Assembly: GCA_030697645.1 (NCBI GenBank)
Contig: JAUYPI010000006.1
Coordinates: 76,017-140,016 of the forward strand
Origin: a bacterium
GTDB lineage: Bacteria; Patescibacteriota; Minisyncoccia; Phycocordibacterales; VMGT01
Length of the DNA: 64,000 nucleotides
Direction: 5' to 3'
The position numbers and the translations under genes were made by a program. The notes beneath the pieces were generated by a model, which saw only the letters and a program-made list of their open reading frames with translations, was not told where the DNA came from and did not search any database. This document shows, in pieces, positions 3,691 through 60,508 of the stretch. Numbering within the stretch: the first letter of the stretch is position 1; each line of letters opens with the position of its first letter.

Positions 3691-3868
3691 ATAGGACTTA
3701 CGCGTTTGGCGCATTTCTTTGTTGCCTTCGTCGCTCAAACCTGTCGCTCGTAGCTTCAAGTACGTCTCGCGTTTTCGCTCCTCGGCGTCTCGATACTCTG
3801 CTCAAACGCGTAAGTCCTATGTTCAATGAAGTCTGTTAAAAATGGCTCTTCGGCTGTAAGATAGATAT

Positions 3869-6656: not shown

Positions 6657-7262
6657 ATGAACAACAAATCAGCGCCTATCTTCATCATGGTGGTCGTAGG
6701 TGTTCTTGCGATCGTCCTCCTGGGTGGAATGTATTTGTCGCGTTTTTTTTCAACGAGCAACACGGATCGTAGCGGTGCAAAAACTGCCTGCACCCAAGAA
6801 GCAAAACTCTGCCCCGACGGCACCGCCGTCGGCCGCACCGGTCCGAACTGCGAGTTTGAGGCGTGCGCAACTTCGGACAACCAACTGCCAACGACCAATG
6901 AACCGAATACGTCAGAGTGGAAAACGTATCGGAATGAAGAGTATGGGTTTGAGATGAAGTACCCGCCAACATGCCGCGTTTATTTAAATGAGGTATTCGC
7001 GAAGCCGCCTACGCCGACGTGTTTTTCCATTTTTGTGAGAGGGGAGAATAGCTTTAATCTTGAAGAGTTTCTCGAAAGTGCTAAACAAGACAATTCACTT
7101 ACGGCGTTCAAAATCGGCGGTGAGGCCGCTTACCGTATTCAAGGAACCATAAAGAAAATGGATACTATAGTGGTCAAATATAATGGTTTTGTGTACACTT
7201 TTCCGGATGCCGACTTCTTATTACGGGAGGGTATTTTATCCACCGTTAAATTCACCAACTGA
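6657..7262 (+). CDS. Membrane-anchored protein, Cys-motif family member 1 (signal-anchor TM + CTQEAKLCPDGTAVGRTGPNCEFEAC + WKTYRNEEYGFE domain)
   Basis: N-terminal hydrophobic helix IFIMVVVGVLAIVLLGG. Four-cysteine motif. Paralogous to 8159..8887 and to the C-terminal half of 9433..10368. Confidence 0.6.
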   Translation: MNNKSAPIFIMVVVGVLAIVLLGGMYLSRFFSTSNTDRSGAKTACTQEAKLCPDGTAVGRTGPNCEFEACATSDNQLPTTNEPNTSEWKTYRNEEYGFEMKYPPTCRVYLNEVFAKPPTPTCFSIFVRGENSFNLEEFLESAKQDNSLTAFKIGGEAAYRIQGTIKKMDTIVVKYNGFVYTFPDADFLLREGILSTVKFTN

Positions 7263-7266
7263 TCGT

Positions 7267-7407
7267 CTCCATGATTCTTGATTCATAATTCTTACTTCAT
7301 CCGTCATGTTCCTCAACCCATACGCAAAACTCATCCAAAACCCGTTTGATCTCGCCTCGCTCGAGAAAAAGCCGACACGGGACGGCTTCGGAAAGGGTAC
7401 GTGTTGA
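7267..7407 (+). repeat. Partial copy 1 of the tktB 5' region (native-looking leader plus 34 codons, then a stop)
   Basis: ctccatgattcttgattcataattcttacttcatccgtcATG..., encoding MFLNPYAKLIQNPFDLASLEKKPTRDGFGKGTC*. This matches the tkt C-subunit N-terminus NPFDLTALEKKPTRDGFGKG at 10365. Confidence 0.6.
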
Positions 7408-7431
7408 CATACAATTGTATAAGTATACAAT
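7404..7431 (+). promoter_or_regulatory. Sigma-70-like promoter (TTGACA-16-TACAAT) overlapping palindromes ATACAATTGTAT and TTGTATAagTATACAA; probable autoregulated toxin-antitoxin promoter/operator
   Basis: TTGACA at 7404-7409, TACAAT at 7426-7431, 7 nt before the RHH start codon. Confidence 0.4.
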
Positions 7432-7437
7432 AGTATA

Positions 7438-7696
7438 TATGGCTACCATAGACTATATCACAACCAATATTCGTCTGCCGAAGGAAGATTTAAAAGTATT
7501 GAAACAGGAGGCGTTCGCGAAAGAGCAAAGTGTGGGCGCGCTTCTTCGGTCTTTGGTTCGCGAACATTTTACGGGGCGTGCGGGGGTGCACACCAAACGC
7601 GCGCGTCGTTCCGTATGGGATCTTCCGAAGCGCGCACAGAAAACCGGTGCGCGAAATCTCGCATCCAACGTTGACCGCATCGTGTATGGAATATAA
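7438..7696 (+). CDS. Ribbon-helix-helix-type antitoxin (86 aa)
   Basis: MATIDYITTNIRLPKEDLKVLKQEAFAKEQSVGALLRSLV... Its 3' end overlaps the PIN gene by 11 nt. Confidence 0.55.
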
Positions 7697-8117
7697 CCGA
7701 AAAATATTGGTTGACGCGAACGTGTTTATTGCCCTTTTGAACAAAGATGACGCACTGCATCTCCGGGCAGTCGCTCTTTGGGCCGACATGAAGCAAGAAA
7801 ATCGCGAGCTCGTTACCTTGAATGTTGTCGCGTCTGAGGCGCTGACCGTTTTGAGCCAGCGAGGAAGCAAGGCGCTCGCGCTTGAATTGGCCGAGACGCT
7901 GTACGGTGATGGTAAAAATGATATAGAAATGGTATATGCCGACCGCATGCTCGAAGAGAGAGCGCTCGAGCGATTTCGGAGCATTCGCAGTAAAAATTTT
8001 AGTTTTGTTGACACTATCATTTTGGCGGCATTAGAGCGGTACGCCATACCGGCGCTCGCCTCGTTTGATCGCATCCTTGAGAGGTATGCGAGCGCCGGTA
8101 CCTTACGGCAGGTGTAA
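7686..8117 (+). CDS. vapC: PIN-domain toxin (VapC-like)
   Basis: KILVDANVFIAL...D...E...FVDTIILAA...D acidic quartet pattern typical of PIN. 143 aa. Coupled to the upstream RHH gene. Confidence 0.7.
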   Translation: MEYNRKILVDANVFIALLNKDDALHLRAVALWADMKQENRELVTLNVVASEALTVLSQRGSKALALELAETLYGDGKNDIEMVYADRMLEERALERFRSIRSKNFSFVDTIILAALERYAIPALASFDRILERYASAGTLRQV

Positions 8118-8158
8118 TCGAGCCCTGAATCTTTGGCACGCCTAGAAATCTCCATGGT

Positions 8159-8887
8159 ATGCACAAGCGCACCACAATTGTTTCTCTGGCACTCATCATT
8201 GCCGCCGCGGGCGGGTATGTGCTGTATGCTTCAATCATTGGAGACGTGACGCAGGACAGTGGAAGTACGCAGGCGTGCACTGAGGAAGCAAAACTCTGCC
8301 CGGATGGCAGCACCGTAGGCCGCACCGGGCCGAACTGCGAGTTTGCGGCCTGTCCCAGTCCGGAAATTATTTTTGGTAAGAAAGCCGAGGAATTATGCGG
8401 GCCGCAGCCACCGGCAGAGTGTGGGCCAGGAACAGCGCTCGGATGTTACACGAAAAGCAAAAAGTGGTCTTGTTACCCAGAAATGACTGGGTTTGATACC
8501 TCGGACTGGAAAACCTACCGGAGTGAGGAGTATGGGTTTGAAGTGCGTTACCCACAACAATGGTACAAACACGAAGCGGAGCTATTTCTTTTTTTAACTC
8601 CGACGAGCCCTGAGGTTATTACCGAATCACCTGGGATTAACTTTGTTCTGAAGCCGCTCGAAGGGCGAACAATCCAGCAGTCAGAGGATACGATAAATTT
8701 TGATCGCGAGTGCCAGCCAACAATTTTTGGAGGAAGAGGTGCGACCAAATGTCATCCGGTTATTTCTTTTGCTGGAGAAAGCTTTACATTTATTCGAATG
8801 TCAGACGGCCAGTATCTTTCAATCGGTGATTATTTAACGAGCGATCTTTCTGGCCTCATTCTCTCCACCTTCAAGTTCACCAAATGA
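8159..8887 (+). CDS. Membrane-anchored protein, Cys-motif family member 2 (TM + CTEEAKLCPDGSTVGRTGPNCEFAAC + WKTYRSEEYGFE domain)
   Basis: TM helix IVSLALIIAAAGGYVLYA. Same four-cysteine motif. Extra Cys-rich stretch CGPQPPAECGPGTALGC. Paralog of 6657..7262. Confidence 0.6.
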   Translation: MHKRTTIVSLALIIAAAGGYVLYASIIGDVTQDSGSTQACTEEAKLCPDGSTVGRTGPNCEFAACPSPEIIFGKKAEELCGPQPPAECGPGTALGCYTKSKKWSCYPEMTGFDTSDWKTYRSEEYGFEVRYPQQWYKHEAELFLFLTPTSPEVITESPGINFVLKPLEGRTIQQSEDTINFDRECQPTIFGGRGATKCHPVISFAGESFTFIRMSDGQYLSIGDYLTSDLSGLILSTFKFTK

Positions 8888-8891
8888 GCGC

Positions 8892-9050
8892 CTCCATGAT
8901 TCTTGATTCATAATTCTTACTTCATCCGTCATGTCCCTCAACCCCCAAGCAAAACTCGTCCCCAACCCTTTCGACATCGCCTCGCTCGAAAAGAAGCCCA
9001 CACGGGATGGGTTCGGGAAAGGCCTTGTTGAGGCCGGAGAGATAGAAATA
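8892..9050 (+). repeat. Partial copy 2 of the tktB 5' region (same leader; ATG at 8931; 37 native codons)
   Basis: Encodes MSLNPQAKLVPNPFDIASLEKKPTRDGFGKGLVEAGE then diverges. The leader is identical over about 45 nt to copy 1. Confidence 0.6.
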
Positions 9051-9067
9051 CATGATAAAATACGATT

Positions 9068-9436
9068 ATGCATACGATAAACCAAAAAATTAAAGAGATT
9101 ACGGACACAATCGTTAAAGAGTACCAACCGGAGAAAATTATTCTCTTTGGCTCGTATGCATGGGGCGAGCCGCATGAGTGGAGTGATGTTGACTTGCTTG
9201 TGGTAAAAGAAAGTACAAAGACGCAGCTCGAACGACGACGCGAATTGCGGCGCTTGCTTTTAGACGCAGACATGCCGCTTGATATTTTAGTGCACACAAA
9301 AAAGGAATTAGAGGACAACATCAACGAGAAACGCAATCTTTTTTTAGAAGACATAGTCCGTAATGGCCTTACACTTTACTCTGCTACGCAGGGCGAGATT
9401 GAGCTTACCCATACGCCCGCAACGCTTATTACATGA
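9068..9436 (+). CDS. Minimal nucleotidyltransferase (MNT) antitoxin-type protein
   Basis: GSYAWGEPHEWSDVDLLVV is the GSx9-13DxD nucleotidyltransferase signature. 122 aa. 4-nt ATGA overlap with the downstream HEPN gene. Confidence 0.75.
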   Translation: MHTINQKIKEITDTIVKEYQPEKIILFGSYAWGEPHEWSDVDLLVVKESTKTQLERRRELRRLLLDADMPLDILVHTKKELEDNINEKRNLFLEDIVRNGLTLYSATQGEIELTHTPATLIT

Positions 9437-10368
9437 ATGACAAAACGACACAATACGCTGGCGAGTGGTTTGAGAGAGGAGACGACGATCTCCAGGTTAT
9501 GGAAGTGCTCCTGAGGAACGAGAGTATCCCCAATGTTGTTTGTTTTCATGCGGAACAGGCGGCAGAAAAATACCTGAAAGGATTCCTGGCGCATCGTGAG
9601 CGACACGCCCGCAGGGTGCACGACTTGTCCTCACTATTGCGGGTATGCTGCGAGGTGGATGCGTCATTCAAAGCGCTACAACATGACGTAGAATTTCTTG
9701 GCGATTTGTACTTTTCGTCACGTTACCCGGACAATTACACCGTGTATCAAAAGAAGGACGCCGAGGAAGCACAGGCAGCTGCGATGCGTGTCAGGGCATT
9801 CGTCCTGGGGCGAGTAAAAGGAAACAGCGCAGATGGTGAGCCCGGCTTTGGCACCGTCGGTCTCATTGTTGGCGTTGTCGCGCTCGCGGTGTTCGTTGCT
9901 CTCGGCGCGGTCGTTTTGCGCAGCCGAGAGGGAGCGGAGGACGGCGTTGCCGCCTGCACCGAAGAAGCAAAACTCTGCCCCGACGGCACCACCGCCCTCC
10001 GCACCGGGCCGAACTGCGAGTTTGCGGAGTGTCCGCTGGTCTCCACACAAGAGGCCGGACATTTAAATGTTCAGACCGACCCCGAAATGGTTATGAGGGA
10101 GGTCGCACGACTGTTGCTTACTGCTGATAGTATTGATGCTGTGTTACCGTATTTTGACGATGGTTCTCAGTCGGTGCTCAAGCGGCGTTTTTCAGAGACA
10201 GCCCTCATGCGCTCGTTGGGTACGACTTATCAATCGGCAAAGCTTGTGGAACGAACCGATACTATTGCTACATTTGGAGTAACGGTTGCAGCGCAAGACA
10301 CGGTTTATCACGGCACGATAGTACTTTATAAGTTTGAGGATGGTAGCTGGAGGATAACTTCGCCTTGA
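9433..10368 (+). CDS. HEPN-domain protein fused to TM helix and Cys-motif extracytoplasmic domain (family member 3)
   Basis: N-terminal HEPN-like HAEQAAEKYLKGFLAHRERHARRVH (R-x5-H). Then TM GTVGLIVGVVALAVFVALGAVVL. Then CTEEAKLCPDGTTALRTGPNCEFAEC. The stop overlaps the tkt C-subunit start. Confidence 0.6.
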   Translation: MNDKTTQYAGEWFERGDDDLQVMEVLLRNESIPNVVCFHAEQAAEKYLKGFLAHRERHARRVHDLSSLLRVCCEVDASFKALQHDVEFLGDLYFSSRYPDNYTVYQKKDAEEAQAAAMRVRAFVLGRVKGNSADGEPGFGTVGLIVGVVALAVFVALGAVVLRSREGAEDGVAACTEEAKLCPDGTTALRTGPNCEFAECPLVSTQEAGHLNVQTDPEMVMREVARLLLTADSIDAVLPYFDDGSQSVLKRRFSETALMRSLGTTYQSAKLVERTDTIATFGVTVAAQDTVYHGTIVLYKFEDGSWRITSP

Positions 10369-11390
10369 ATTGTATGATTTACAGAGACGCGCATCTCGTC
10401 GAAAACCCTTTCGACCTCACCGCGCTCGAGAAAAAGCCGACGCGCGATGGGTTTGGAAAAGGCCTCGTTGAGGCTGGGGAGAAAGACCCCCGCGTGGTGG
10501 TGCTGTGCGCTGACCTTGCGGATTCCACGCGCGCGCAGTGGTTTCGGGATAAGTTTCCGGATCGCTACATCGAGCTTGGAGTTGCGGAGCAGAACATGGC
10601 GACGGTTGCAAGCGGGCTTGCGAACTACGGGAAGATTCCCTTCATGGCCTCATACGCGGCATTCAATCCGGGGCGCAACAATGAGCAAATCAGGACGACG
10701 ATCGCGCTCAATAATGTGCCGGTGAAAATCGTGGGCTCGCATGGCGGTATCAGCGTCGCGCAGGACGGTGCCACGCACCAGGCGCTCGAAGATGTGGGAC
10801 TTATGCGTATGCAGCCGAACATGGTGGTCATTGTGCCAGTGGATGCCGAAGAGGCGCGGAAGGCAACGTATGCTGCGGCGTTCAACGGGGCTCCGACATA
10901 TCTCCGCTACACGCGTGACAACCGGCCGGTGTTCACCACCGCCGACTCTCCGTTTGAGATAGGGAGGGCGAATTTGCTCTGGGACGGTAATCCCGAGGGA
11001 GACCTCGACGTCGCTGTCATCGGCTGCTCCCCGGTCCTGCACAATGCGCTCATGGCGGTTAAAGAGCTCGCCGAAGAGCGCGGACTTAAGATTGCGGTGC
11101 TGAATTGCCACACAATAAAACCGCTCGACCGCGATGCGATTGTCGGCATTGCAAAGCGAGCCGGAGCCGTTGTCACCGCCGAGGAACACCAAATCGCTGG
11201 CGGCATGGGCTCGGCAATCGCAGAACTACTTGTCCAAGAACATCCAGTACCGATTGAATTCGTCGGCGTCCACGATCGCTTCGGCCAGTCAGGAACCGTC
11301 GAGGAACTTTTCAAGGAATACGGCCTCGATGCGTCGCACATCAAGGAGGCGATCGTGCGGGTGCATGGACGAAAACAAGCCCTTAACTAA
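10365..11390 (+). CDS. Transketolase, C-terminal (pyrimidine-binding/C-terminal domain) subunit
   Basis: NPFDLTALEKKPTRDGFGKG..GSHGGISVAQDGATHQALEDVGLMR, plus a C-terminal domain. The first ~13 codons differ from the two upstream fragment copies. The tracked start is TTG at 10365; the true start may be the ATG at 10374. Confidence 0.85.
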   Translation: MNCMIYRDAHLVENPFDLTALEKKPTRDGFGKGLVEAGEKDPRVVVLCADLADSTRAQWFRDKFPDRYIELGVAEQNMATVASGLANYGKIPFMASYAAFNPGRNNEQIRTTIALNNVPVKIVGSHGGISVAQDGATHQALEDVGLMRMQPNMVVIVPVDAEEARKATYAAAFNGAPTYLRYTRDNRPVFTTADSPFEIGRANLLWDGNPEGDLDVAVIGCSPVLHNALMAVKELAEERGLKIAVLNCHTIKPLDRDAIVGIAKRAGAVVTAEEHQIAGGMGSAIAELLVQEHPVPIEFVGVHDRFGQSGTVEELFKEYGLDASHIKEAIVRVHGRKQALN

Positions 11391-20334: not shown

Positions 20335-20470
20335 AACCAACAATTTCAAAACAAACTTCAAATTCCAATGCATCAAATCTCAAACACGTACGTCGTGTTT
20401 GGAAATTGGATTTTGAATATTGAGATTTGTTTGGAAATTGTTGGTTGGAAATTGGAGCTTCGTCGTGGTG
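20335..20470. repeat. Intergenic k-mer palindromic element (ttggaaatt family), long imperfect inverted repeat centred on cacgtacgtcgtg
   Basis: caaacttcaaattccaatgcatcaaatctcaaacacg | cgtgtttggaaattggattttgaatattgagatttgtttggaaattg. Shares an exact 21-mer with the element at 59359-59379 (reverse complement). Confidence 0.7.
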
Positions 20471-28840: not shown

Positions 28841-29350
28841 TTAAGCCGGGTTATTGCTACGGCGTCTTTTCCGCGTCACATATGTTGGTTGGCGTTCGTG
28901 AATCCCGCTGCGGCGGTTCATGTCTCGTGCCAGCGCAAACATAAGGCACGCCAACTGGTCCATGTAGAATGCCACGATGGTGGGGTTGTCGAGATAGCCC
29001 ACAGTTTTCCGCTCAACCGCCCGTGCCTGAGTTCGCACGCAATGGAGCACGCATGAGCCCGTCGTGCCTTCGGGAATGAGAAAGTGGTCAAGCGGTTCTA
29101 ACGTAGACTCAATACCATACGTTTCCTTTTGCAAGTCGAACACGCGTTCTTTCTGCAGAGCCGGTGTGCTATTGGGGCACACCACTCCTGCTTGCAAGAC
29201 AAATAGATCATTTTGGATAGCAGTGAAGAGTTTTACATCTTTTCTCCTTTTCATCAACGACTTTGCCAGGCCGACCAACGAATTCAGGTGGTCGAGTTCT
29301 CCCAAAAGCTCGTTCTTTTCTTCGTCCAGATTGAGGTTGGTCACCGGCAC
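28841..29350 (-). CDS. ATP:cob(I)alamin adenosyltransferase, PduO type (Cob_adeno_trans family)
   Basis: DLFVLQAGV...FLIPEGTTGSCVLHCVRTQARAVER matches the PduO-type FILPGG...LH.ART..RRAER signature. Confidence 0.55.
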   Translation of the reverse strand: MPVTNLNLDEEKNELLGELDHLNSLVGLAKSLMKRRKDVKLFTAIQNDLFVLQAGVVCPNSTPALQKERVFDLQKETYGIESTLEPLDHFLIPEGTTGSCVLHCVRTQARAVERKTVGYLDNPTIVAFYMDQLACLMFALARDMNRRSGIHERQPTYVTRKRRRSNNPA

Positions 29351-29404: not shown

Positions 29405-29618
29405 TTTGTAATAAAAATCAACAACAGAATAAATATCTGTCCCGTATGGGTTAGGTGAGCACCTTGTCGGATGGCAGGTTGCTGGAGCGTCATCGGGCCT
29501 ATTCCCTCGGCTCACTCTTGATACTTATTCTGTTATAAATGTACCTGATACAAATGTACCAAAACGTATATCGCGCCGGCAATGTTTAGTAGTTTTAGGA
29601 AACAATAAAATCAAACTG

Positions 29619-30227
29619 TCAATGTTGATGGTCCTCGTCTCCACCGCAGCCGTCGGAGAGGTTCCAGAGTTCGGTCAATTGTTCTCCGGTAAACCCGTGA
29701 TTTTGAATGAGGTATTTTCCGAGTCCCCCGTAGACGAACCATCGCCAGCACCTGCAGCAACACGGGCCTTTTTCGTTTGAGTATAGCATGGCGTAGTCGT
29801 ACGCCTGTTGCTCTTCTGCGGTAAGTTCAAGATCGTAGTACGCAATGAGGCGTTCCGCCAATTGTGCATCAATATCATACGGGTCGTCGGGAATTTCTGC
29901 GATGTTTTGCCCGCCTACAGCTTTGAATTTTTTGAGGCCTTCAATTTGCTCGCTGTAGCGGTGGACTTCCATCGGAGTGCAGCACGATCCCCTGATACGC
30001 TCCCCGTCCGGCATATCGGCAATGGAATTTTTGAATTCTCCCGAGCAGGAAGAATTGCCGCCCTCGGAGAGTGCTTCGAACTGCGCCGCGAGCGCCGTGG
30101 GGACAGTGTGATGGTTGTCGTCCTCAGACGCTGGCCGCCTCGCCGACTCACCAAGCACCAGTGCGCCACCGACGAGAAGCGCAGTGATTCCCAGCGCGGA
30201 TGAGATTTGTTTCCTCGAGGGGCTCAT
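29619..30227 (-). CDS. Secreted Cys-rich protein (203 aa; CCC motif GPCCCRCW, CSGE, GSCCTP)
   Basis: Start at MSPSRKQISSALGITALLVGGALVLG (signal peptide), which is internal to the tracked 404-aa ORF. ATGA overlap with the upstream membrane-protein gene. Confidence 0.5.
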   Translation of the reverse strand: MSPSRKQISSALGITALLVGGALVLGESARRPASEDDNHHTVPTALAAQFEALSEGGNSSCSGEFKNSIADMPDGERIRGSCCTPMEVHRYSEQIEGLKKFKAVGGQNIAEIPDDPYDIDAQLAERLIAYYDLELTAEEQQAYDYAMLYSNEKGPCCCRCWRWFVYGGLGKYLIQNHGFTGEQLTELWNLSDGCGGDEDHQH

Positions 30228-30802
30228 GGCGTTTGTGGGGGAGTACAGATCAATGGCGAAGCGATTTTTTTTGCGATGATGACGAGTGAGAAGACGAGGA
30301 GTACCACGCCGAGGATACCGAATTCTCCGCCGTGGAGCGGCAAGATCGCAAGGGCACCAGCGGCGCCGACTGCAGAGAGTACGGTGCTCAAGAGGAAAGA
30401 GCCACAGGCGGCGCAGCCGATGCCGAGCGCGCCGCTTGCGACGCCGAGAGTTCCTGCCGCAATTTCCTGCCCTTGCAGGCGACGGCGGGTGCGCTTGAGA
30501 AAGTAGACAATCATCGTGACGTTCGCACCAAAGAGCATGGCAATTGCGATGGTGTAGCCGGCGGAGAATAGAGTGAAGTTCGTGAAAATACTGCCGAGCA
30601 GACTCAGGGCGATGGTGAGTTTGCGAGAGAGCGGCGCGTGTGAGGAGATGAAGATATCGGCAATCAGACCGATATTCGGGAGCCACACCGCAAGAAGGAA
30701 AGCGAGTATAGTGAGCGCAACCGCTAGCACAGCGTACGAAGCTCTGCCAAACACCTCGCCCGTCGCCCGTCGTAGGTTTCTGAGGTCCCCTACTATTATC
30801 AT
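30224..30802 (-). CDS. Polytopic membrane protein with intramembrane CAAC (CxxC) motif; putative thiol-disulfide redox partner
   Basis: About 5-6 predicted TM helices; GIGCAACGSFLL. Sits between a DsbA-like gene and a secreted Cys-rich protein gene with 4-nt overlaps on both sides. Confidence 0.5.
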   Translation of the reverse strand: MIIVGDLRNLRRATGEVFGRASYAVLAVALTILAFLLAVWLPNIGLIADIFISSHAPLSRKLTIALSLLGSIFTNFTLFSAGYTIAIAMLFGANVTMIVYFLKRTRRRLQGQEIAAGTLGVASGALGIGCAACGSFLLSTVLSAVGAAGALAILPLHGGEFGILGVVLLVFSLVIIAKKIASPLICTPPQTP

Positions 30803-31566
30803 GGCTGTTCTTCTTCTTTGAGCGCAAGATCAATCAGCTGTTTTACTGACGCATACGGCAGCCCGCCCGAGAGCGGATATTTTTTACCGCTCTCCGTTAT
30901 GATGATACTCCAGGGCGTACCGTTGCCTCCTGTTGCGATCGCATCGTCGAGATCGTCTTGGACATGCGCATCATAGTTGCCCGCCGTGAGGCAGAAGTTG
31001 AATTTACTTACGTCGAGTCCGATTTCCGATGCTATTTGCGGCAGGACTTTTTTGATATCTGTTTGGTCGTTCGATGGGGTCAATTCATAGAAGCGGTCAA
31101 GATACGCCCAAAACGCAGTGTTTCCGCCGCTCTCCGCGGCGCACTCGCTCGCGATAGCCTCGGCCCTCGCCTTTGAATGAAGTGTGTCGAGCGGAAAATG
31201 TCGATATATCCACGCAACGGTTCCATCTTTGCCGTATTCGTCCATCACCTGCTTTAGTGTGGGGTGGAATCGCTTGCAGAACGGACATTCCATGTCCGAA
31301 TATTCGACTATTTTTAGCGGCGCGTTCGGATTGCCACGAATGTGATCACGCTCGCTGATAGGCCGCATATTGTCTAGACTCTGCGAGTCTTGCGCTGCTG
31401 CGATTGCTGCGGGCTCTGGCGCCCTCGCGATACTTCCTCCGCGATCAGAGAAATACACCGCGGCCGCAACAAGCGCGCCCGCGAAGATAATCGAGAGCGA
31501 TACTGCAGCGGTGTGCGACGTCGAAGATCCTACGCCAGCCTCTTTTTGTATAGTGTCGTTTTCCAT
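30799..31566 (-). CDS. DsbA-family thiol:disulfide oxidoreductase with N-terminal membrane anchor
   Basis: Thioredoxin-fold active site MECPFCKRFHP. TM helix AAVSLSIIFAGALVAAAVYF. Confidence 0.7.
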   Translation of the reverse strand: MENDTIQKEAGVGSSTSHTAAVSLSIIFAGALVAAAVYFSDRGGSIARAPEPAAIAAAQDSQSLDNMRPISERDHIRGNPNAPLKIVEYSDMECPFCKRFHPTLKQVMDEYGKDGTVAWIYRHFPLDTLHSKARAEAIASECAAESGGNTAFWAYLDRFYELTPSNDQTDIKKVLPQIASEIGLDVSKFNFCLTAGNYDAHVQDDLDDAIATGGNGTPWSIIITESGKKYPLSGGLPYASVKQLIDLALKEEEQP

Positions 31567-31770
31567 CGAGTATAATTATTAGGTTTGCGAATGTTTTTTG
31601 GTATATAATCACGGCGCTCGCGGAAAATGAAAAGGCCTCTTTTCGCTTTCCGCTCGCTTGTGATTATAGCACATATATACCACGGGGGCGTGGAGAGCTG
31701 CAACGGTGCATGTCGATTGAGAGGAGTGCACGTCCGAGTACTAAAACATTCGGGCGTTTTTTGTCAGCCG

Positions 31771-31989
31771 TTACGCCACCTCGAACACCTTATTTTTTGC
31801 CGAAGCCCCTGAGACCAAACGGATGCGTGACGGGCTGACGCCAAAGTACGCGGCGATCGCGTGCGCGACACCCGCGTTTGCCTTGCCGCGGCGTGCTGGC
31901 GCTTGGACGGAAACGACAAAATGCGATTCGTCAATCTTCTCGACCGCCTCTCGTCGCGCGTTCGGCTTCGCTTTGATAAAGACTTTCAT
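31771..31989 (-). CDS. DUF167/YggU-family small protein
   Basis: MKVFIKAKPNARREAVEKIDESHFVVSVQAPARRGKANAGVAHAIAAYFGVSPSRIRLVSGASAKNKVFEV matches the UPF0235 pattern. Confidence 0.55.
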   Translation of the reverse strand: MKVFIKAKPNARREAVEKIDESHFVVSVQAPARRGKANAGVAHAIAAYFGVSPSRIRLVSGASAKNKVFEVA

Positions 31990-32016
31990 GATGAGGCCCC
32001 ATCCATAAATAATTTC

Positions 32017-32222
32017 GGATCACACGCAAAAGCACTGGTAGTCCGTCATTACGAGCGAACGTAGCCGAAGCCGCGATGCGCGGGCGCGGCGGGAAGCAAC
32101 CCAGAGTATAGTCACCGTATGTCAGAGTCGAGAGAATTGTAGGTCATCCCCCTGGATTGCTTCGCTCCGCTCGCAAAGACCTACGCCGCCGGCCTCCTTA
32201 CCGGTGCTTTTGCGTGTGATCC
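32017..32222. mobile_element. MITE-like element: perfect 19-bp terminal inverted repeats, flanked by 8-bp direct repeat ATAATTTC
   Basis: TIR ggatcacacgcaaaagcac (32017-32035) and gtgcttttgcgtgtgatcc (32204-32222). ATAATTTC at 32009-32016 and 32223-32230. The interior holds further imperfect palindromes. No transposase. Confidence 0.55.
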
Positions 32223-32327
32223 ATAATTTCCCCATCTCGCACTCACTGCACGCCCTTATGCGGCTCGTGCTCAATCGCGAAATCCCTTTCGTTCCCGATC
32301 GGGTCTCGGATTCGCTCATTCCGCGTC

Positions 32328-32393
32328 AAGCTGCATCAGGCCATGCTATTCAGCACAATATGAGTGAACTTATGTATGGACGCACGATAACGT
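32328..32393 (+). repeat. Conserved ~65-bp upstream element, copy 1 (5' of rarA)
   Basis: caagctgcatcaggccatgctattcagcacaatatgagtgaacttatgtatggacg is about 75% identical to 52078-52143, upstream of atpG. Confidence 0.5.
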
Positions 32394-32431
32394 GATAACG
32401 CGTGCGGTGCGTTTATGGTACCATCCCCTCC

Positions 32432-33559
32432 ATGGAACCGCTTGCTTCACGGTTGCGGCCACGAACGCTTGAGGGATTTATCGGGCAGGAGCATCTCGTC
32501 GGGGAGGGGATGCCGCTCCGGAGCGCGATCGAGCGTCGGCACCGATTTTCATTCATTCTCTGGGGGCCGCCCGGGGTGGGGAAGACGACGCTGGCGCGCA
32601 TCTACGCGCAAGCGCTTGAAGCGAAGCTCTACGAGCTCTCGGCGGTGTCGGCGGGGAAAGACGACGTGCGTGCGGTGCTTGCGGACGAGAGTGCCGACTC
32701 GCCGAAGGTGCTCTTTCTCGACGAGATTCACCGCTTCAACAAAGCGCAGCAGGACTTTCTCCTGCCCTTTGTCGAGCGCGGTGAGATTACACTCATCGGC
32801 GCGACGACCGAGAACCCGAGTTTTGAAGTGATCGCGCCGCTCTTATCGCGCTGCCGTGTGTTCGTGCTCCGCGAACTCTCGGAGGATGAGATCGGGATGA
32901 TCATTGCAAAGAGCGGCATATCGCTCGATGATGAGGCGCGTACGCGCCTTGCCGCTATCTCAAACGGAGACGCACGTCAGGCGCTCACCATTCTTGAAGT
33001 CGCCTCCGAGCTCTATGGGGCGGTCACGATTGAGACGCTCGAGCGCGCACTCCAGTCACAGCACCTGCGCTACGACCGCGCCGGGGAGGAGCACTACAAT
33101 ACGATCAGCGCGTTCATCAAAAGCATGCGTGCCGGGCAGCCGGACGCAGCGATTTACTACCTCGCGCGGATGGTCGAGGCCGGGGAAGACCCGCTTTTTA
33201 TCGCGCGGCGGATGGTGATATTCGCGAGCGAAGACATCGGTCTCGCGCAGCCGACTGCGCTTGTTGTGGCAAACGCCGTTTTTCGCGCCTGCGAGACCAT
33301 CGGGTACCCCGAGTGCGCGATCAACCTCGCGCACGGGGTCGCGTACCTTGCGCAGAGCCGCAAAGATCGTCGCGCGTATGATGCGCTGCGAGGAGCGCAG
33401 GCGGACGTGAAGCGCCTCGGCAATCTTCCGGTCCCGCTCAAAATTAGAAACGCCCCAACCAAGCTCATGAAAGAGCTCGGCTACGGCAGCGGATATGAGA
33501 AGTATACGAAAGAAGATTTACTCCCCGACGAGATCAAGGGGAAGAAGTATCTCGAGTAA
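32432..33559 (+). CDS. rarA: Recombination factor RarA/MgsA (AAA+ ATPase)
   Basis: [17 protein letters not shown] (Walker A), [16 protein letters not shown]-terminal MgsA domain. Confidence 0.8.
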
Positions 33560-37554: not shown

Positions 37555-37770
37555 GTATACTACACTTTGATAATAGACCTCTCACAACACAAAACACAAA
37601 CAAAGCACAAATCCAAAAGCCACAAAACACAAACACGTAGTGCAACCGTTTTGGTTTTGGAATTTGTGTTTTGATGTTTTGTTTGTGCTTTGTAATTTTG
37701 GCTTTGGGCTTTCGTTTGTTTTGTTTCGAATTTCGCTATTCAAATTTGTGCTTTTTACAAGCTAACAGCC
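37555..37770. repeat. Intergenic k-mer palindromic element (caaaacacaaa / tttgtgttttg family)
   Basis: caaaacacaaacaaagcacaaatccaaaagccacaaaacacaaacacg...cgttttggttttggaatttgtgttttgatgttttgtttgtgctttg: arms built from the same k-mers in opposite orientation. Confidence 0.65.
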
Positions 37771-39419: not shown

Positions 39420-41705
39420 TTATTGCTCGTTGCCTGTTGCTCGTCCGCCCGGCCGGTGATTTGCACACTCTTTATTACTGCAGCGCTCAGGAATGGTTTT
39501 CGTCCCCTCCATCATGAGTGAGCCGCAGAGGGGGCAGATGCGGCCGGTTGGTTTTGCTTTGATTGCATGTTTGCACGCGGGGTAGTTTGAACAGCCGTAG
39601 AAGAGTCCGAATTTCCCGCGCCGCTCCGCCATCTCGCCCTTGCCGCATTTTGGACAAGGAACGCCCGTGCTTGTCGCTTGCTGCGTGCTGCTTGCCGCCT
39701 TTTTAATATACTTGCACTTCGGATACTTGCCGCACCCAACAAACTTTCCAAATTTTCCATCGCGTTCGACAAGCGCGCCGCCGCACTCGGGGCAGCGCTC
39801 GCCGGTCTCCTGGGGCGGCTTCACCTCCTCGCCGTGCTCCGACCGCGCGCCTTCGCATTCGGGAAACCTGCTACAGCTCATGAACGTGCCGGAGCGGCTG
39901 AGCTTCATCACCATGGCGCTCCCGCAGGTCGGGCAGCGAAATTGCTTTGGTGCGGGACCGAGATCCGTGAGCCGCGGGACGTTCTGTCTTGCCGCGACGT
40001 CCTTGCTAAACGGCGTGTAGAAATCGGCAAGCGTCTTGGCATACTCGCGCGCTCCGCGCGCGATATCGTCGAGTTCATCCTCCATCTTCGAGGTGAAGGT
40101 ATCGCTTATGTAGGAGGCAAAATTTTTCTCGAGGAACGTGCTTACGACATCGCCCATCGCGGTGGGCTTCAGTGACCGGCCTTCTTTCTCGACGTATTCG
40201 CGATCCTGGATCGTCTTGATGATGGAGGCGTATGTCGAAGGCCTGCCGATGCCGCGTTTTTCAAGTTCCTTCACGAGCCCCGCTTCGCTGTAGCGTGGCG
40301 GGGGCTGCGTTTGTTTGCCCTCGCTCTCGAGCGAGCGGAGAGTGAGTGGTTCCTCGCGAGCGACTTTCGGAAGCTCGATGTCCTCGCCGCGCGAGGCCGG
40401 GTCCGCGGCGAGCCAGCCGTCAAATTTTGTGCGGGAGCCAATGGCAGAAAATGCGGGAACGTCTTTTGCTTCTATGGGTACTGCGACGCGCGCCGTAATT
40501 TTCGTCTTGATGAGCTCGGCCGCGGCCATCTGGCTTGCGAGCGTACGTGCGCGGATCAGCGCGTAGAGGCGTTTTTGCTCTTCGGTAGCGCCTGCGGATG
40601 CGCGCGTGATGTCCGTCGGACGGATCGCCTCGTGCGCTTCCTGCGCGCTTTTGCTCGTGGTTTTATACTGTCGCAGCGTGACATACCGCTCGCCGAATTT
40701 CTTGGTGACAGCTGCGCCGATTGAGCTCCGGGCTTCCTCTGCGAGCGTCGTCGAATCGGTGCGCATGTAGGTGATGTGCCCCTGCTCATAGAGCTGCTGC
40801 GCAGTGCGCATGGTGCGCGCCGGGGAGAAGCCGAGCCGCGAGCTTGCGGCCTGCTGGAGGGTCGAGGTCGTGAACGGAGAGCGCGGGGCCCGAGACGTTT
40901 CCGTCTCGAGTACCTCGGCGACAATCCAGCTGCCGCTGCGGCCGACTTTGAGTATTCGCTCCGCCTCCTCGCGGGTCTTTGGCTCCTCGACGCACACGAG
41001 CGTCATGCCACTCCCTTTTTTTGTCGCACAGAGCGCGGTGAGCACCCAGTAGTTCTCCGGCACGAACGCGCGGATCTCTCGCTCGCGCTCGACGAGAATA
41101 CGCAGGGCAGGGGACTGCACTCGGCCTGCCGAGAGCCCGTAGCGGAGCTTCTTCCAGAGTAGGCCCGAGAGGTCGTAGCCGACGAGGCGGTCGAGGACTC
41201 TGCGCGCCTCCTGCGCCCTGACGAGCCGCTCGTCAATATCTCGCGGATGCGCGAGCGCTTCTTTCACTGCGCGCTCCGTAATTTCGTGGAAGACCACACG
41301 TTTAACGTTTGGAATTTGGAATTTGGAATTTGGAATTTGTTTGGAGCTTGTTTTTTGGAATTTGGAATTTCCGAGGCCGAGCGCCTCGGCGACGTGCCAC
41401 GCGATCGCCTCGCCCTCTCGATCCGGGTCGGTCGCAAGCAGCACTTCGTCCGCTTTTTTTGCTGCAGCTTTGAGATCGGCGATAACTTTTGTTTTCTCCG
41501 GGATGATTTCGTAGTGCGGCGCGAATCCGTGCGCAATGTCCACCGCGTTTTCATTCTTCTTCGGCAGATCACGCACATGGCCCACCGAGGCCTTGACGCT
41601 GTAGCCCGGCCCCAGGTATTTGCTGATCGTTTTCGATTTTGCAGGAGATTCGACGATGACGAGTTTCATACGAGCAGTATGCAGCGTGCAGCAGGCAGTA
41701 AGCAA
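39420..41705 (-). CDS. topA: DNA topoisomerase I with C-terminal zinc ribbons; contains an in-frame repeat-derived insertion
   Basis: Toprim MKLVIVESPAKSKTISKYLG. Active-site region. C-terminal CPTCGS/CPECGG/CPKCGKG/CPLCGS zinc fingers. Confidence 0.85.
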   Translation of the reverse strand: MLTACCTLHTARMKLVIVESPAKSKTISKYLGPGYSVKASVGHVRDLPKKNENAVDIAHGFAPHYEIIPEKTKVIADLKAAAKKADEVLLATDPDREGEAIAWHVAEALGLGNSKFQKTSSKQIPNSKFQIPNVKRVVFHEITERAVKEALAHPRDIDERLVRAQEARRVLDRLVGYDLSGLLWKKLRYGLSAGRVQSPALRILVEREREIRAFVPENYWVLTALCATKKGSGMTLVCVEEPKTREEAERILKVGRSGSWIVAEVLETETSRAPRSPFTTSTLQQAASSRLGFSPARTMRTAQQLYEQGHITYMRTDSTTLAEEARSSIGAAVTKKFGERYVTLRQYKTTSKSAQEAHEAIRPTDITRASAGATEEQKRLYALIRARTLASQMAAAELIKTKITARVAVPIEAKDVPAFSAIGSRTKFDGWLAADPASRGEDIELPKVAREEPLTLRSLESEGKQTQPPPRYSEAGLVKELEKRGIGRPSTYASIIKTIQDREYVEKEGRSLKPTAMGDVVSTFLEKNFASYISDTFTSKMEDELDDIARGAREYAKTLADFYTPFSKDVAARQNVPRLTDLGPAPKQFRCPTCGSAMVMKLSRSGTFMSCSRFPECEGARSEHGEEVKPPQETGERCPECGGALVERDGKFGKFVGCGKYPKCKYIKKAASSTQQATSTGVPCPKCGKGEMAERRGKFGLFYGCSNYPACKHAIKAKPTGRICPLCGSLMMEGTKTIPERCSNKECANHRPGGRATGNEQ
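41306..41372. repeat. ttggaattt-family k-mer repeat inserted in frame inside topA
   Basis: gtttggaatttggaatttggaatttggaatttgtttggagcttgttttttggaatttggaatttcc, coding GNSKFQKTSSKQIPNSKFQIPNVK on the minus strand. Confidence 0.65.
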
Positions 41706-43133: not shown

Positions 43134-43134
43134 T

Positions 43135-43265
43135 TACGAATGTCAAAGTTCAAAACGCAAGCAAAGTCAAAAGTCAAAACGCAAAAGTCAAAACCGCAGC
43201 CTCAAAGTCAAAAGTTTGAAAGGTTTTAGGCTGTGGTTTTGAGCTTTGACTTTTGCGTTTTGACT
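43135..43265. repeat. Intergenic k-mer palindromic element (gtcaaaagtcaaaacgcaaa family) forming a long hairpin
   Basis: gtcaaaacgcaaaagtcaaaaccgcagcctcaaag...aggctgtggttttgagctttgacttttgcgttttgac. Confidence 0.65.
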
Positions 43266-43277
43266 TGGCTTGTAGCA

Positions 43278-45224: not shown

Positions 45225-45370
45225 CACCCGCATTAATTTTCAATTTTGCAATTTTCAATGAATTTTCAATGTGTCAATGACTCAATGGCGGACGACGTCG
45301 TGTTTGAAAATTGTGTCATTGCAAAATTGATTGAAAATTGAAAATTGAACATTGGAAATTTCTGACTCAA
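45225..45370. repeat. Intergenic k-mer palindromic element (caaaattgaaaattg family), copy flanking mraY upstream
   Basis: Shares an exact 24-mer cattgcaaaattgattgaaaattg (45317-45340) and the core cgtgtttgaaaattg with the copy at 46486-46650. Confidence 0.7.
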
Positions 45371-45414: not shown

Positions 45415-46485
45415 ATGATAATAAATGTAGCTAAAGTCTTCCTTCCCGCCACCATTGCTTTCGCGATCGGTGTCGTGTTCGCGCCGCTCCTGGCACACTA
45501 CTTATACCGCTTTCGCATGTGGAAGAAGAGTGCGAAAGCGGTAGCGCTCGACGGCCGTGGTACGCCGATCTTTCACTCGCTCCACCGCGATAGGGAAACA
45601 TCGACGCCGAAACTTGGCGGCATCGTGATCTGGGGAAGCACGCTTGTGACAGTACTTCTCATCAGAATTGCCGAAGACGTCATTCCCTCAGCGCTCACGG
45701 CAAAACTTGAGTTCCTCAGTCGTTCGCAGACGTGGCTGCCACTCGTAACACTCCTCGTGGGGGCAACCATCGGTTTTATAGACGACATGCTTGATGTGCG
45801 GGGAGGCGGAAAGTACCTCGCTGGTGGACTTTCGCTCCGGATGCGGCTCGGTATCGTTGCTTTGACCGGACTCATCGGTGGGTGGTGGTTTTTCACGAAA
45901 CTTGGAGTCTCAAGCATCATAGTGCCGTTTGCCGGTGAGGTGATACTCGGCTGGCTCCTCGTGCCGCTCTTCATCATCGTTCTGCTCGCGATCTACTCAG
46001 GCGGCGTCATTGATGGTATTGATGGCCTTGCCGGCGGGGTGTTTGCGGCGATATTCGGCGCGTATGGTGGCATCGCGTTTTTTCAAAACCAGATTGACCT
46101 CGCGGCATTCTCGGCGGTCGTCGTTGGCGGCATTCTTGCTTTTCTCTGGTTTAACATTCCACCTGCTCGATTCTATATGTCCGAGACAGGCACCATGGGG
46201 CTTACCATGACGCTCGCGGTCGTCGCATTTCTCACCAAGGCCGTCGTCGTCTTGCCCATAATCGCTTTTCCGCTGCTTGCCACAACCGCCTCGGACGTGA
46301 TCCAGCTCGCTTCAAAGCGCTTCCGCGGAGGGAGAAAGGTGTTCCTTATCGCGCCAGTGCACCACCACTTCGAAGCCCTCGGCTGGCCGCCGTACAAAGT
46401 GACGATGCGTTACTGGGTGATTTCGGTCATCTGCGCGCTCCTTGGCATGATCGTGGCCCTCGTGGGGAACCAGGTCACGCTTTGA
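45415..46485 (+). CDS. mraY: Phospho-N-acetylmuramoyl-pentapeptide transferase
   Basis: Polytopic membrane protein with a DD-containing cytoplasmic loop IDDMLDVRGG and HHHFE. Confidence 0.85.
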   Translation: MIINVAKVFLPATIAFAIGVVFAPLLAHYLYRFRMWKKSAKAVALDGRGTPIFHSLHRDRETSTPKLGGIVIWGSTLVTVLLIRIAEDVIPSALTAKLEFLSRSQTWLPLVTLLVGATIGFIDDMLDVRGGGKYLAGGLSLRMRLGIVALTGLIGGWWFFTKLGVSSIIVPFAGEVILGWLLVPLFIIVLLAIYSGGVIDGIDGLAGGVFAAIFGAYGGIAFFQNQIDLAAFSAVVVGGILAFLWFNIPPARFYMSETGTMGLTMTLAVVAFLTKAVVVLPIIAFPLLATTASDVIQLASKRFRGGRKVFLIAPVHHHFEALGWPPYKVTMRYWVISVICALLGMIVALVGNQVTL

Positions 46486-46650
46486 ATTTTCAATTTTCAA
46501 TGCTCAATTTTCAATAAATTTTCAATCCGCCAGCTGGCGGACCCAATGGCTCAATGACGAATCACGGACGAACGTCAGCGTGTTTGAAAATTGATTCATT
46601 GCAAAATTGATTGAAAATTGGAAAATTGATAATTGAAAATTCAGACTCGA
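46486..46650. repeat. Intergenic k-mer palindromic element (caaaattgaaaattg family), copy flanking mraY downstream
   Basis: 24-mer cattgcaaaattgattgaaaattg at 46597-46620. Arms gaattttcaattttcaatgctcaattttcaat / attgaaaattggaaaattgataattgaaaattc. Confidence 0.7.
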
Positions 46651-52070: not shown

Positions 52071-52077
52071 CTGCGCC

Positions 52078-52143
52078 AAGCTGCATCAGGGCGTGCATTG
52101 AGCGCGATATTAGGGTAACTTATTTATGGACGGGGCCTAAGCA
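52078..52143 (+). repeat. Conserved ~65-bp upstream element, copy 2 (5' of atpG)
   Basis: aagctgcatcagggcgtgcattgagcgcgatattagggtaacttatttatggacgg; see 32328-32393. Confidence 0.5.
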
Positions 52144-52200: not shown

Positions 52201-53121
52201 ATGTCCTCCGGCAAACAATTGAAAACGCGCATCAGGTCAGTCGGTAACATTCGCAAGATTACGAAGGCGATGGAGCTTGTCTCTGTCTCCAAAATGAAGC
52301 GAGCTGTTGATGCTCTGCTCCGCACCCGTCCCTACGCTGAGGGCGCGTGGGAAGTGCTGCGCGACCTCAGAGCGGTGGCGCTCGGAGAGAGGCATCCCTT
52401 GCTTGGCGAGGAGCGGGAGTTGAAACGCGCGCTCGTCCTGCTCACGACATCCGACCGCGGCCTCTGCGCCAACTTTAACAGCGCGGTGCTCGGGAGAGTT
52501 GAGAAATTTTTGGCCGAGTTGCCGGAGGGCGCGAGTGCTGATATCGTGACTCTTGGGAAGCGCGGGCGGGAGGCCGCGGCGCGGAGGGGCTGGAATCTTG
52601 TTGCTTCGTTTGACCACCTCTCGGTGCTTCCGAGCGCCGAGGATATAGAGCCAATCGCGACTCTCCTCACGCGCGGTTTTATCGAGGGACGCTACGACCA
52701 CATCTATATCGTCTTTACGGATTTTGTCTCAGCGATTCGTCAAGAGGTGGCGCTTGAGCAGCTTTTGCCGCTCCACGAGAACGCGCGGCTTGGCGCGGCA
52801 TGGCGCGTCGGGGAGGGCGCGGTGAACACCACGCGCGCTCTCGCGCGCGAGCGCTTGCGCAGAATCGAGTTCCTGTTTGAACCGTCGGGGAAAGCGGTGT
52901 TTGAGTATGTACTGCCGCGGCTCGTTTCCGTGCAGATTTTTCAGGGCATCCTCGAGTCAATAGCGTCTGAGCACGCCGCACGCCGGCTCGCGATGAAGAA
53001 CGCGACCGACGCCGCGGCGGACATCGTTCGCGACGTCACGTTTACATTCAACCAGATGCGCCAGTCCGCGATCACGCAGGAAATCGCGGAAATCTCGACC
53101 GGAGCGATGATGACGAGGTAG
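52201..53121 (+). CDS. atpG: F0F1 ATP synthase subunit gamma
   Basis: MSSGKQLKTRIRSVGNIRKITKAMELVSVSKMKRA N-terminus. C-terminal ...MRQSAITQEIAEISTGAMM. Confidence 0.8.
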   Translation: MSSGKQLKTRIRSVGNIRKITKAMELVSVSKMKRAVDALLRTRPYAEGAWEVLRDLRAVALGERHPLLGEERELKRALVLLTTSDRGLCANFNSAVLGRVEKFLAELPEGASADIVTLGKRGREAAARRGWNLVASFDHLSVLPSAEDIEPIATLLTRGFIEGRYDHIYIVFTDFVSAIRQEVALEQLLPLHENARLGAAWRVGEGAVNTTRALARERLRRIEFLFEPSGKAVFEYVLPRLVSVQIFQGILESIASEHAARRLAMKNATDAAADIVRDVTFTFNQMRQSAITQEIAEISTGAMMTR

Positions 53122-53128: not shown

Positions 53129-54559
53129 TTGCGGCATCATTATCTCTATATCTCTATGGGTTCGAGTCTTAAAGGTTTCGGCGTTATTGGGGTGGTCATT
53201 ATTACCACTCTCACTCTTCTCGTCGGGGGCGCCGTCCTCTATCTTAGTAAATTTAAGAATCCGAAAGTATCGCAAGAAAGTTTTTCGGAAGAACCACTGC
53301 AGAGTGAGAATATTCAAAACGAAGGATCAGAACGAAACGAATCAGACTATCACCATCTGGAGGCTGCAATTGAAAAGAACTATTTTACTCAATGCATTGA
53401 TACCTCCCGCGCTCAGTCGACTCTTTATGAAGAAAAGCAAGATATACCGCAACAACTTGAGGACGATACTGTAATCCAGATAGAACTTGGAAAAGAACTG
53501 GGCTTTTTTACAGCCTTTCTCGCTTCAGAAAAAGATGCACAAATAAATAATCTAACTCAGGGGTTTATGGACCAACGAGCTGGCTACTCAGTAAGATTGC
53601 CGCAAGGCTGGAAACGAACCGAGGCTGGACCCCCTGGTTCTTTCATTGAATTTTCAACCTCAACGATACATAAAACAGGAGATTTGTGGGTTACGATTGA
53701 GCGTGAGACAGACCCCGGCATCTTTCCAAGGTGTAGTGGTTCGGTTCATGATTACTTACCAAAGGGAAATTCTTCTGAATTTTTGGAGAAAACACAATGC
53801 CGAGGGGGTTATTACCTTACACTGCGTCTACGGCGCGACGATCAAAATAGTGATACACACAAAAAATTACTTGAAAAAATAGCGAACAATTTCTACCCAA
53901 TTGACGAAGATTTCCTTCGTAATCGAGGAGCGAGGCCCTCCGTAGTTTTTGATAATCTTGCAACAGATGTCTTAATCCGAGTGCAACTCATGGGAAATAA
54001 AAAGATTCCTCCCAAAGGCATCCTGCGTCTTATCAAGTACACTTCGATACAAGAGGATATCTATGATGATCTCGGTCCACTTTATGATACTGGTATGGAT
54101 GGGGACGAAATTGTAAATGACGGTGTATTTTCAAAGAAAATTTCAGTTAAGGAGAGTGGGCCCAAGCCTTTATTCTTTGGGTTTATTCTCGTGGTTCCCG
54201 ATTCTATGGTTCCAACACGACTTCACGATTTGTTACTTCCGGTTGCAATTCGACAGGATCCCGAGTGTGTGGTGGATAGTTTTGTTGCAGACTTACGTTC
54301 GGGAGATATAGAATCGGCGGGAAAAAAGGTCGGCGAGCGCGTAAAAGAAGGTTTAAGTACCATAGACCAGTCCGCCTTACTCAAACTAGCTGATTCGATT
54401 GAAAGGAGGACTCTTGAGGAGCCCAAAGAAGATAGCGCGAAATGGTACCGTAGTGATTCAAGATCATATGAAATCCCTTGGGATGACGCAGATGGTCCCG
54501 GCTCATTGAGTATATCGTTGTTTAGAGACGCTCTCGGTATATGGAGTATACAGTTTTAG
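53129..54559 (+). CDS. Hypothetical membrane-anchored protein (476 aa), low GC, inserted between atpG and atpD
   Basis: N-terminal TM GFGVIGVVIITTLTLLVGGAVLYL. AT-rich codon usage unlike the flanking atp genes. Confidence 0.5.
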   Translation: MRHHYLYISMGSSLKGFGVIGVVIITTLTLLVGGAVLYLSKFKNPKVSQESFSEEPLQSENIQNEGSERNESDYHHLEAAIEKNYFTQCIDTSRAQSTLYEEKQDIPQQLEDDTVIQIELGKELGFFTAFLASEKDAQINNLTQGFMDQRAGYSVRLPQGWKRTEAGPPGSFIEFSTSTIHKTGDLWVTIERETDPGIFPRCSGSVHDYLPKGNSSEFLEKTQCRGGYYLTLRLRRDDQNSDTHKKLLEKIANNFYPIDEDFLRNRGARPSVVFDNLATDVLIRVQLMGNKKIPPKGILRLIKYTSIQEDIYDDLGPLYDTGMDGDEIVNDGVFSKKISVKESGPKPLFFGFILVVPDSMVPTRLHDLLLPVAIRQDPECVVDSFVADLRSGDIESAGKKVGERVKEGLSTIDQSALLKLADSIERRTLEEPKEDSAKWYRSDSRSYEIPWDDADGPGSLSISLFRDALGIWSIQF

Positions 54560-55951
<1,392 letters not shown>

Positions 55952-60186: not shown

Positions 60187-60270
60187 ATCGTGCGTCAGTT
60201 TTCCGGGACAACCCTCATTTTTCTAGGGTCACGATAGCACACGGCGCCGACGCCGGCAACTTTTAGTGCG

Positions 60271-60460
60271 GTAACCGCTCACACCTTTTATTTTTGTGCA
60301 TTGCGAGAGGTGTTTAGGAAATGGCGAGCCGAGTAGAAAAATGCAGCTGTCTGAGGCCGACTAGCAAGGCGGCCGAGTTCTGCATTTTTCGTCAAGCGAG
60401 GCGACCCCATTTCGAAAAGACCGAAGCACGAGCACAAAAATAAAAGGTGTGAGTGGTTAC
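60271..60460. mobile_element. MITE-like element: ~29-bp terminal inverted repeats (22 bp exact), nested internal palindrome, flanked by 8-bp direct repeat TTAGTGCG
   Basis: ctcacaccttttatttttgtgc (60278-60299) and gcacaaaaataaaaggtgtgag (60432-60453). TTAGTGCG at 60263-60270 and 60461-60468. Inner inverted repeat gaaaaatgcag...ctgcatttttc. Confidence 0.5.
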
Positions 60461-60508
60461 TTAGTGCGAGTTGGTGCATGATTACATGCCTCGAGTTTCC
60501 ATCCATTA

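Follow-up and report, generated by a model that had tools for sequence, protein, structure and literature searches.

Within the 64-kb stretch of DNA analyzed here (64,000 nucleotides, hereafter the window), a yggU-like gene (31771-31989, minus strand; 72 aa; PF02594, YggU/DUF167-type) and rarA (32433-33559, plus strand; 375 aa) lie divergently on the two sides of a 442-bp spacer. This spacer contains a 206-bp element at 32017-32222, for which we use the short name el1; the yggU start codon (31989) is located 27 bp from its left end, and rarA begins 210 bp to its right. The original prediction had placed the element between a yggU-like gene and rarA, and the flanking genes were identified as such. 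The nearest named homologues of this RarA were found in MAGs annotated as Paceibacterota, Minisyncoccia or Parcubacteria. A simple promoter scan detected no sigma-70-type promoter in the region from 31500 to 32700, and a terminator-like site was found at 32187-32206, within el1.

El1 is bounded by perfect 19-bp terminal inverted repeats (TIRs). The left TIR, GGATCACACGCAAAAGCAC, occupies positions 32017-32035, and its exact reverse complement occupies positions 32204-32222; when the repeats were extended to 24 nt (left, GGATCACACGCAAAAGCACTGGTA, 32017-32040, plus strand; right, 32199-32222, minus strand), 23 of the 24 positions matched. The octamer ATAATTTC flanks the element in two identical copies, at 32009-32016 and 32223-32230. 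All coordinates and letters originally given for the TIRs and the flanking octamers agree with the sequence, and the imperfect palindromes originally described inside el1 are also present. With up to three mismatches allowed, the TIR 19-mer occurred at 2 sites in the window compared with an expectation of 0.03, and two or more sites were obtained in none of 100 shuffles; likewise, when the window was shuffled 30 times, a perfect inverted repeat of 19 nt within 600 nt never arose. The chance that a given inverted-repeat candidate is flanked by an exact 8-bp repeat is 4^-8. When every inverted-repeat candidate of the window was considered, only two were flanked by a direct repeat of at least 6 bp, namely el1 and a second element described below (el2), and in both cases the repeat was exactly 8 bp long. 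A chance origin of the el1 TIRs together with the 8-bp repeat is excluded.

El1 has no coding capacity. All six reading frames are closed or without a start codon, and the earlier statement that the element carries no transposase ORF holds for every frame. A 65-aa ORF that had been considered probably spurious is indeed so; it starts outside el1, and no homologue of any el1 frame was found among 5.8 billion proteins, which were searched with one frame and then with the open frames of el1, el2 and the spacer concatenated. Since these protein searches were empty, the spurious ORF calls yielded no further copies of the elements. We also scanned approximately 30 ORFs of the window against Pfam, and found housekeeping genes or ORFs without a family but no transposase domain.

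The sequences flanking el1 belong to a repeat unit of approximately 65 nt, which we designated U (approximate consensus, GCGCCAAGCTGCATCAGGGCGTGCATTGAGCGCGATATTAGGGGAACTTATTTATGGACGGGGCCT), and el1 splits one copy of this unit; the original prediction had not recognized that el1 was inserted into a repeat. Three intact copies of U were found: a solo unit upstream of atpG (52071-52138, plus strand; atpG begins at 52201), a unit toward rarA (32320-32387, plus strand) that is the inverted partner of the split copy, and a unit upstream of aspS just past the end of the window (L015:73-141), which belongs to a further U doublet. A profile search with nhmmer detected U on the minus strand as two pieces, each abutting an el1 end. 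The yggU-proximal fragment (31994-32016) corresponds to model positions 46-68 (32016 to 31994), and the distal fragment (32231-32270) is contained in the match to model positions 5-56 (32270 to 32220). When el1 and one ATAATTTC were removed, 31994-32016 joined to 32231-32270 formed a continuous fourth copy of U, inverted and facing yggU. Without the 206 bp, the joined flanks would read ...CCATAAATAATTTCCCCATCTCG..., and they aligned with 52079-52138 (reverse complement) across the junction. The target, GAAATTAT, sits opposite TAACTTAT or GAACTTAT (reverse strand) in the three intact copies.

The intact U copies are thus empty sites, although paralogous (approximately 84% identical) and not orthologous ones. 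Together with the exact 8-bp repeat around el2, they bear out the proposal that the octamer is the target-site duplication of a non-autonomous TIR element, and they show el1 to be a genuine insertion. The U copies diverge from one another by 16-30%, but the TIRs and the duplication of el1 show no mismatch, and the insertion was therefore presumably recent. With respect to U itself, we observed that the units upstream of yggU, rarA, aspS and atpG are always oriented toward the gene and end from a few to approximately 80 nt before its start codon, and that the two inverted copies, as an inverted doublet, occupy much of the yggU-rarA spacer. It is possible that U is a mobile module, or a promoter or leader module that has been duplicated. 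Among viral contigs, U gave 10 seed-only matches, none of which extended.

We compared the spacer with those of relatives. One relative, whose RarA is 84% identical (locus L140), has yggU and rarA as divergent neighbors with only 23 bp between them (L140:2478-2500); this short spacer is the counterpart of the rarA-proximal TTTATGGTACCATCCCCTCC in the window. A second relative (loci L006 and L007; 92% RarA identity) has a spacer of 680 bp (L006:2129-2808), which exhibits no similarity to el1. The comparison of empty sites suggested in the original prediction supports an insertion: el1 is absent from the relatives, and the three uninterrupted U sites provide its paralogous counterpart. Since the spacers differ among relatives, the whole yggU-rarA spacer is lineage-specific. 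The spacer of the 92% relative includes a 152-bp hairpin TIR element (L006:2583-2734) with a 7-bp duplication, TACGGCA. We also observed unrelated palindromes in this 680-bp spacer, including two REP-like hairpins, ACCCTGCCCGGAGGGCAGGGCGTT, at positions 2139 and 2222. In two lineages, unrelated palindromic elements have each time enlarged the spacer, from 23 bp to 442-680 bp, which provides a concrete case of the way in which CPR organisms build up intergenic DNA.

A long palindrome near assembly breaks could be a product of the assembler. Indeed, the two public Logan assemblies of this species, built from short reads, break nearby, at 31665 and 32256, and because of these breaks they do not constitute independent confirmation of el1. 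However, the break at 32256 is accounted for by a 38-nt exact stretch common to two U-containing regions, the other of which is the U copy upstream of aspS. Furthermore, el1 lies within contigs of two assemblies and is 100% identical in them, the second, an independent assembly from this species (GCA_034376905.1; loci L003 and L019), containing it inside a 15-kb contig, and its duplication is clean and situated inside a recognizable U. We therefore consider an assembly artefact extremely unlikely.

Alternatively, el1 could have a regulatory role between the divergent genes, as a structured hairpin that acts as an RNA, a terminator or an insulator, in which case the 8-bp repeat would be incidental. 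The element folds into a single long hairpin whose predicted stability is strong (z = -5.5 on the plus strand and -7.5 on the minus strand), it includes the terminator-like site at 32187-32206, and it occurs only once in the window, all of which would suit such a role. However, el1 interrupts a unit that is intact elsewhere and is absent from relatives that retain the yggU-rarA pair; it had no match in Rfam at gathering or permissive thresholds; and exact 8-bp repeats surround two unrelated hairpins in one window. A regulatory hairpin is thus very unlikely, and in the sense in which the original prediction set out this alternative, it is refuted by the empty sites.

The second of these hairpins, el2 (60263-60468), is a MITE-like element located between pepA and a 105-aa ORF. 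Its body of 190 bp (60271-60460) is bounded by 29-nt TIRs (GTAACCGCTCACACCTTTTATTTTTGTGC) that match at 28 of 29 positions, and it is flanked by an exact 8-bp repeat, TTAGTGCG. El2 is unrelated in sequence to el1, with no meaningful similarity between the two beyond TCACAC near one tip, and for this reason a common transposase for el1 and el2 is not shown. An independent assembly contig (JAXMIX010000121.1) ends within el2, at 60411, and its other end lies in the U copy upstream of aspS; the contig end at 60411 suggests that el2 is repeated in the genome. A scan with the el2 TIR gave no matches. Taken together, el1 and el2, with 8-bp duplications, and the element of the 92% relative, with a 7-bp duplication, indicate that an activity inserting TIR elements at 7-8-bp staggered cuts has operated repeatedly in this lineage.

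Several other repeats and genes of the window were recorded in the course of the analysis. A palindrome of approximately 37 nt (TTTGCAATAAC-ATTGCGAtCGCTTG-TTATTGCAAAT) occurs at 60509-60545 and 62973-63009, and again in the yggU-rarA spacer of the 92% relative (L006:2413-2452); one of the two window copies overlaps the pepA stop, and the palindrome may be an operator or terminator-like site. An intergenic inverted repeat at 3680-3831 has an 18-nt perfect core, ATAGGACTTACGCGTTTG, with copies 130 bp apart, and is not flanked by a duplication. Position 3721, which lies exactly 30 nt inside this repeat, is where two Logan contigs from this species terminate, and this suggests that the repeat is common to another locus. 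G/T-rich low-complexity intergenic repeats (GTTTGGAATTTGGAATTT, ATTGAAAATTGAAAATTG and similar sequences) were observed at 20397-20460, 37648-37754, 41307-41370, 43134-43267, 45279-45368 and 46479-46648; some of them form hairpins, and one pair constitutes 90-nt direct repeats around a glycosyltransferase gene. Three tandem paralogous gene segments are present at 6657-10462, with blocks (6786, 8273, 9952, etc.) that are 76-84% identical, and the contig of one assembly ends inside them, at approximately 7320. Downstream of atpG (52201-53121), a 476-aa ORF with no Pfam family (53129-54559) precedes an ATP synthase alpha/beta-type gene (54584-55951), and is either an unusual occupant of the ATP synthase operon or a mis-called frame. 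Finally, a SAM-I riboswitch (54 bits; 29430-29527, minus strand) has as its neighbors membrane-protein genes (29619-30802, minus strand) and a Cob_adeno_trans-type gene (28841-29350, minus strand).

Inside el1, a palindromic module that is widespread elsewhere, GTCATTGCGAG...CTCGCAATGAC, is present as a diverged copy (32045-32180), which the original prediction had also overlooked. The left arm of this copy (32045-32104, plus strand) is diverged and consists of GTCATTACGAG, a 37-nt variable region with the mini-stem CCGCG-ATG-CGCGG, and GAAGCAACCCAG. This arm is followed by a central loop or spacer of 46 nt (32105-32150, plus strand) and by a canonical right arm, CCTGGATTGCTTCGCTCCGCTCGCAAAGAC (32151-32180, plus strand), which has one mismatch to the consensus of 77 aligned units. 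In blastn searches, 32147-32180 displayed 91-97% identity over 31-34 nt to unannotated multi-copy repeats of Novosphingobium and Methylobacterium plasmids. The layout of the module, taken from the plasmid loci, is cGTCATTGCGAG, a variable region and GAAGCAATCCAG, then a loop of 13-28 nt and CTGGATTGCTTCGCTnCGCTCGCAATGACg; its two arms thus read GTCATTGCGAG...GAAGCAATCC and GGATTGCTTCG...CTCGCAATGAC. The module is present at 40 or more places on Novosphingobium pSA1, and was also found in Methylobacterium, Methylosinus, Legionella lytica and the cyanobacterium Aulosira. A pattern of 22 specified bases matched 118 viral-contig stretches in IMG/VR. Across the Alphaproteobacteria, Legionella, Aulosira and the present Patescibacteria genome, the 30-nt module arm is 91-100% identical.

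Module units are 67-90 bp long and end sharply; they are not flanked by a duplication, and an outer inverted repeat is normally absent; the complementarity of their flanks was 6.1, compared with 5.4 in shuffles. In the alignment of 77 units, the arm sequences are near-invariant and the consensus folds. The mini-stem of the longer arm exhibited compensatory substitutions at all 5 of its 5 pairs, with 31 double-change cells compared with 8.9 ± 2.1 in shuffled alignments (0 of 500 shuffles), and slid controls gave far lower values. The two middle positions of this mini-stem show conserved tandem G.A mismatches. In the predicted structure, each arm folds on itself into an ATTGC/GCAAT stem, a GA/GAA internal loop, a covarying 5-bp mini-stem, often with tandem G.A pairs, and a GNA triloop. 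A covariance model built from the module units matched the window at 32067-32183 (31.7 bits, E = 1.4e-5), and this was the only significant match across the window and the related CPR loci.

For seven loci with canonical module units, Rfam contained no family, and only sub-threshold matches to generic miRNA hairpins were obtained; literature searches with module DNA and peptide strings returned primers or nothing. We tentatively raise the possibility that the module is an undescribed structured mobile element that crosses phyla, or a structured RNA or single-stranded DNA motif. If undescribed, the module would be a candidate structured element, selfish or functional, with a wide distribution. 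El1 shows that the module can travel within a transposon of the TIR and target-duplication type, which would provide a vehicle for the spread of the module among very distant bacteria, including CPR.

These observations are best explained if el1 is a MITE-type non-autonomous DNA transposon, mobilized in trans, that duplicated an 8-bp target inside U and holds the module in its interior, and we regard this reading as probable. A transposase supplied in trans, most likely of the DDE type, would bind the 19-24-bp TIRs of el1. The 206-bp element would then be inserted at a staggered 8-bp cut in ATAATTTC, within the yggU-facing copy of U, and repair of the stagger would duplicate the target. The module would either be cargo of el1 or have entered later, into the loop of a palindromic precursor of 70 bp.

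The latter course implies two steps, in which a palindrome of approximately 70 bp (24-bp stem, 22-nt loop) was inserted with the 8-bp duplication, and the module later entered its loop by a different, duplication-free mechanism, possibly on single-stranded DNA. Such nesting is suggested by the clean 70-nt hairpin with a 24-bp stem that remains when 32045-32180 is deleted, and by the canonical modules, which are sharp-ended without duplication or outer inverted repeat and a few of which (L097, L099) lie inside palindromes. However, the core-free 70-bp precursor was not found in the collections scanned, and only about 2 of 106 modules in other genomes are nested in another palindrome, which does not establish that modules prefer hairpin loops. 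We therefore consider a two-step origin possible but rather doubtful.

For a trans-mobilized element, further copies and an autonomous parent IS elsewhere would be expected, as the original prediction had proposed, but the collections scanned yielded neither. An exact search for the 19-mer of the el1 TIR yielded no second copy of the element in 185,579 species-representative genomes (596 Gb), 241 M metagenome records or IMG/VR. The only matches in the TIR scans were two single chance 19-mers, one in a Lachnospiraceae MAG (L001) and one in a contig rich in GC (L002), and in both cases a second arm was missing. A blastn search with the whole of el1 gave no match in phages, and its matches in plasmids were limited to the right arm of the core. 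Thus, neither TIR scans nor blastn revealed another copy or a parent IS in the genome, metagenome, viral, plasmid and phage collections, and el1 is represented by one copy in the 64-kb window and by none in the public collections scanned. El1 is so far an orphan MITE-like insertion, and its membership of a MITE family is unproven.

The insertion might also have affected the adjacent gene. El1 separates most of the yggU-facing U copy from yggU, and since it lies 27 bp from the yggU start and splits the gene-facing U, yggU expression may have been rewired. Reduced CPR genomes are usually thought to be poor in mobile elements, and el1 constitutes a well-documented small transposon insertion in such a genome. 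A search of the literature on MITEs in Patescibacteria retrieved nothing relevant.

We compared el1 and its core with known systems. REPINs and BIMEs are REP doublets that form hairpins and are mobilized by RAYT, and REPIN sequences are lineage-specific and vertically inherited (PMC3116915, PMC3337134). The core module is similar to a REPIN or BIME in that two inverted arms of approximately 27-33 nt, each with its own small palindrome, are separated by a short spacer and form a hairpin, and in that it is intergenic, duplication-free and multi-copy in some genomes. In contrast to the lineage-specific, vertical REPIN sequences, however, the module is near-identical across phyla, and the outer TIRs and duplication of el1 are not REPIN features. 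A tblastn search with E. coli RayT detected nothing at E <= 1 in 1.26 Mb of short module loci; RAYTs are single-copy and may lie elsewhere.

Members of the IS6 family generate 8-bp duplications and possess IRs of 15-20 bp with GG at the tip and 'caaa' inside; the TGT of their IR motif cTGTt is fully conserved, and MITEs of 227 and 336 bp are known from the IS6/IS26 family (PMC7986276). El1 resembles these MITEs in its 8-bp duplication, its GG tips, the 'caaa' in the same register (GCAAAA at positions 10-15) and its similar size of 206 bp. However, el1 has CACAC in place of cTGTt, and a DDE_Tnp_IS240-type gene was not seen among the approximately 30 window ORFs scanned. Although GG and caaa are present, we rejected an IS6 origin because the conserved TGT motif is missing, and derivation of el1 from an IS of the IS6/IS26 family is accordingly improbable. 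The el1 IR was 8/14 identical to the IS26 IR, a value that is not significant given all IS families.

The resemblance to MITEs in general is broader. El1 is short and non-coding (206 bp, compared with a usual limit of approximately 500 bp, and without a transposase ORF), has terminal inverted repeats that are perfect over 19/19 positions and extend to 23/24, and forms a long hairpin; it lies in an AT-rich intergenic target that it duplicated, and the empty site can be demonstrated in three paralogous U copies. It differs from MITEs in that no second copy or autonomous parent was found, and in that its interior consists of a copy from another repeat family and not of IS-derived filler. El1 is otherwise ordinary in kind, and its unexpected aspect is this nested module, which is found across phyla and displays covariation.
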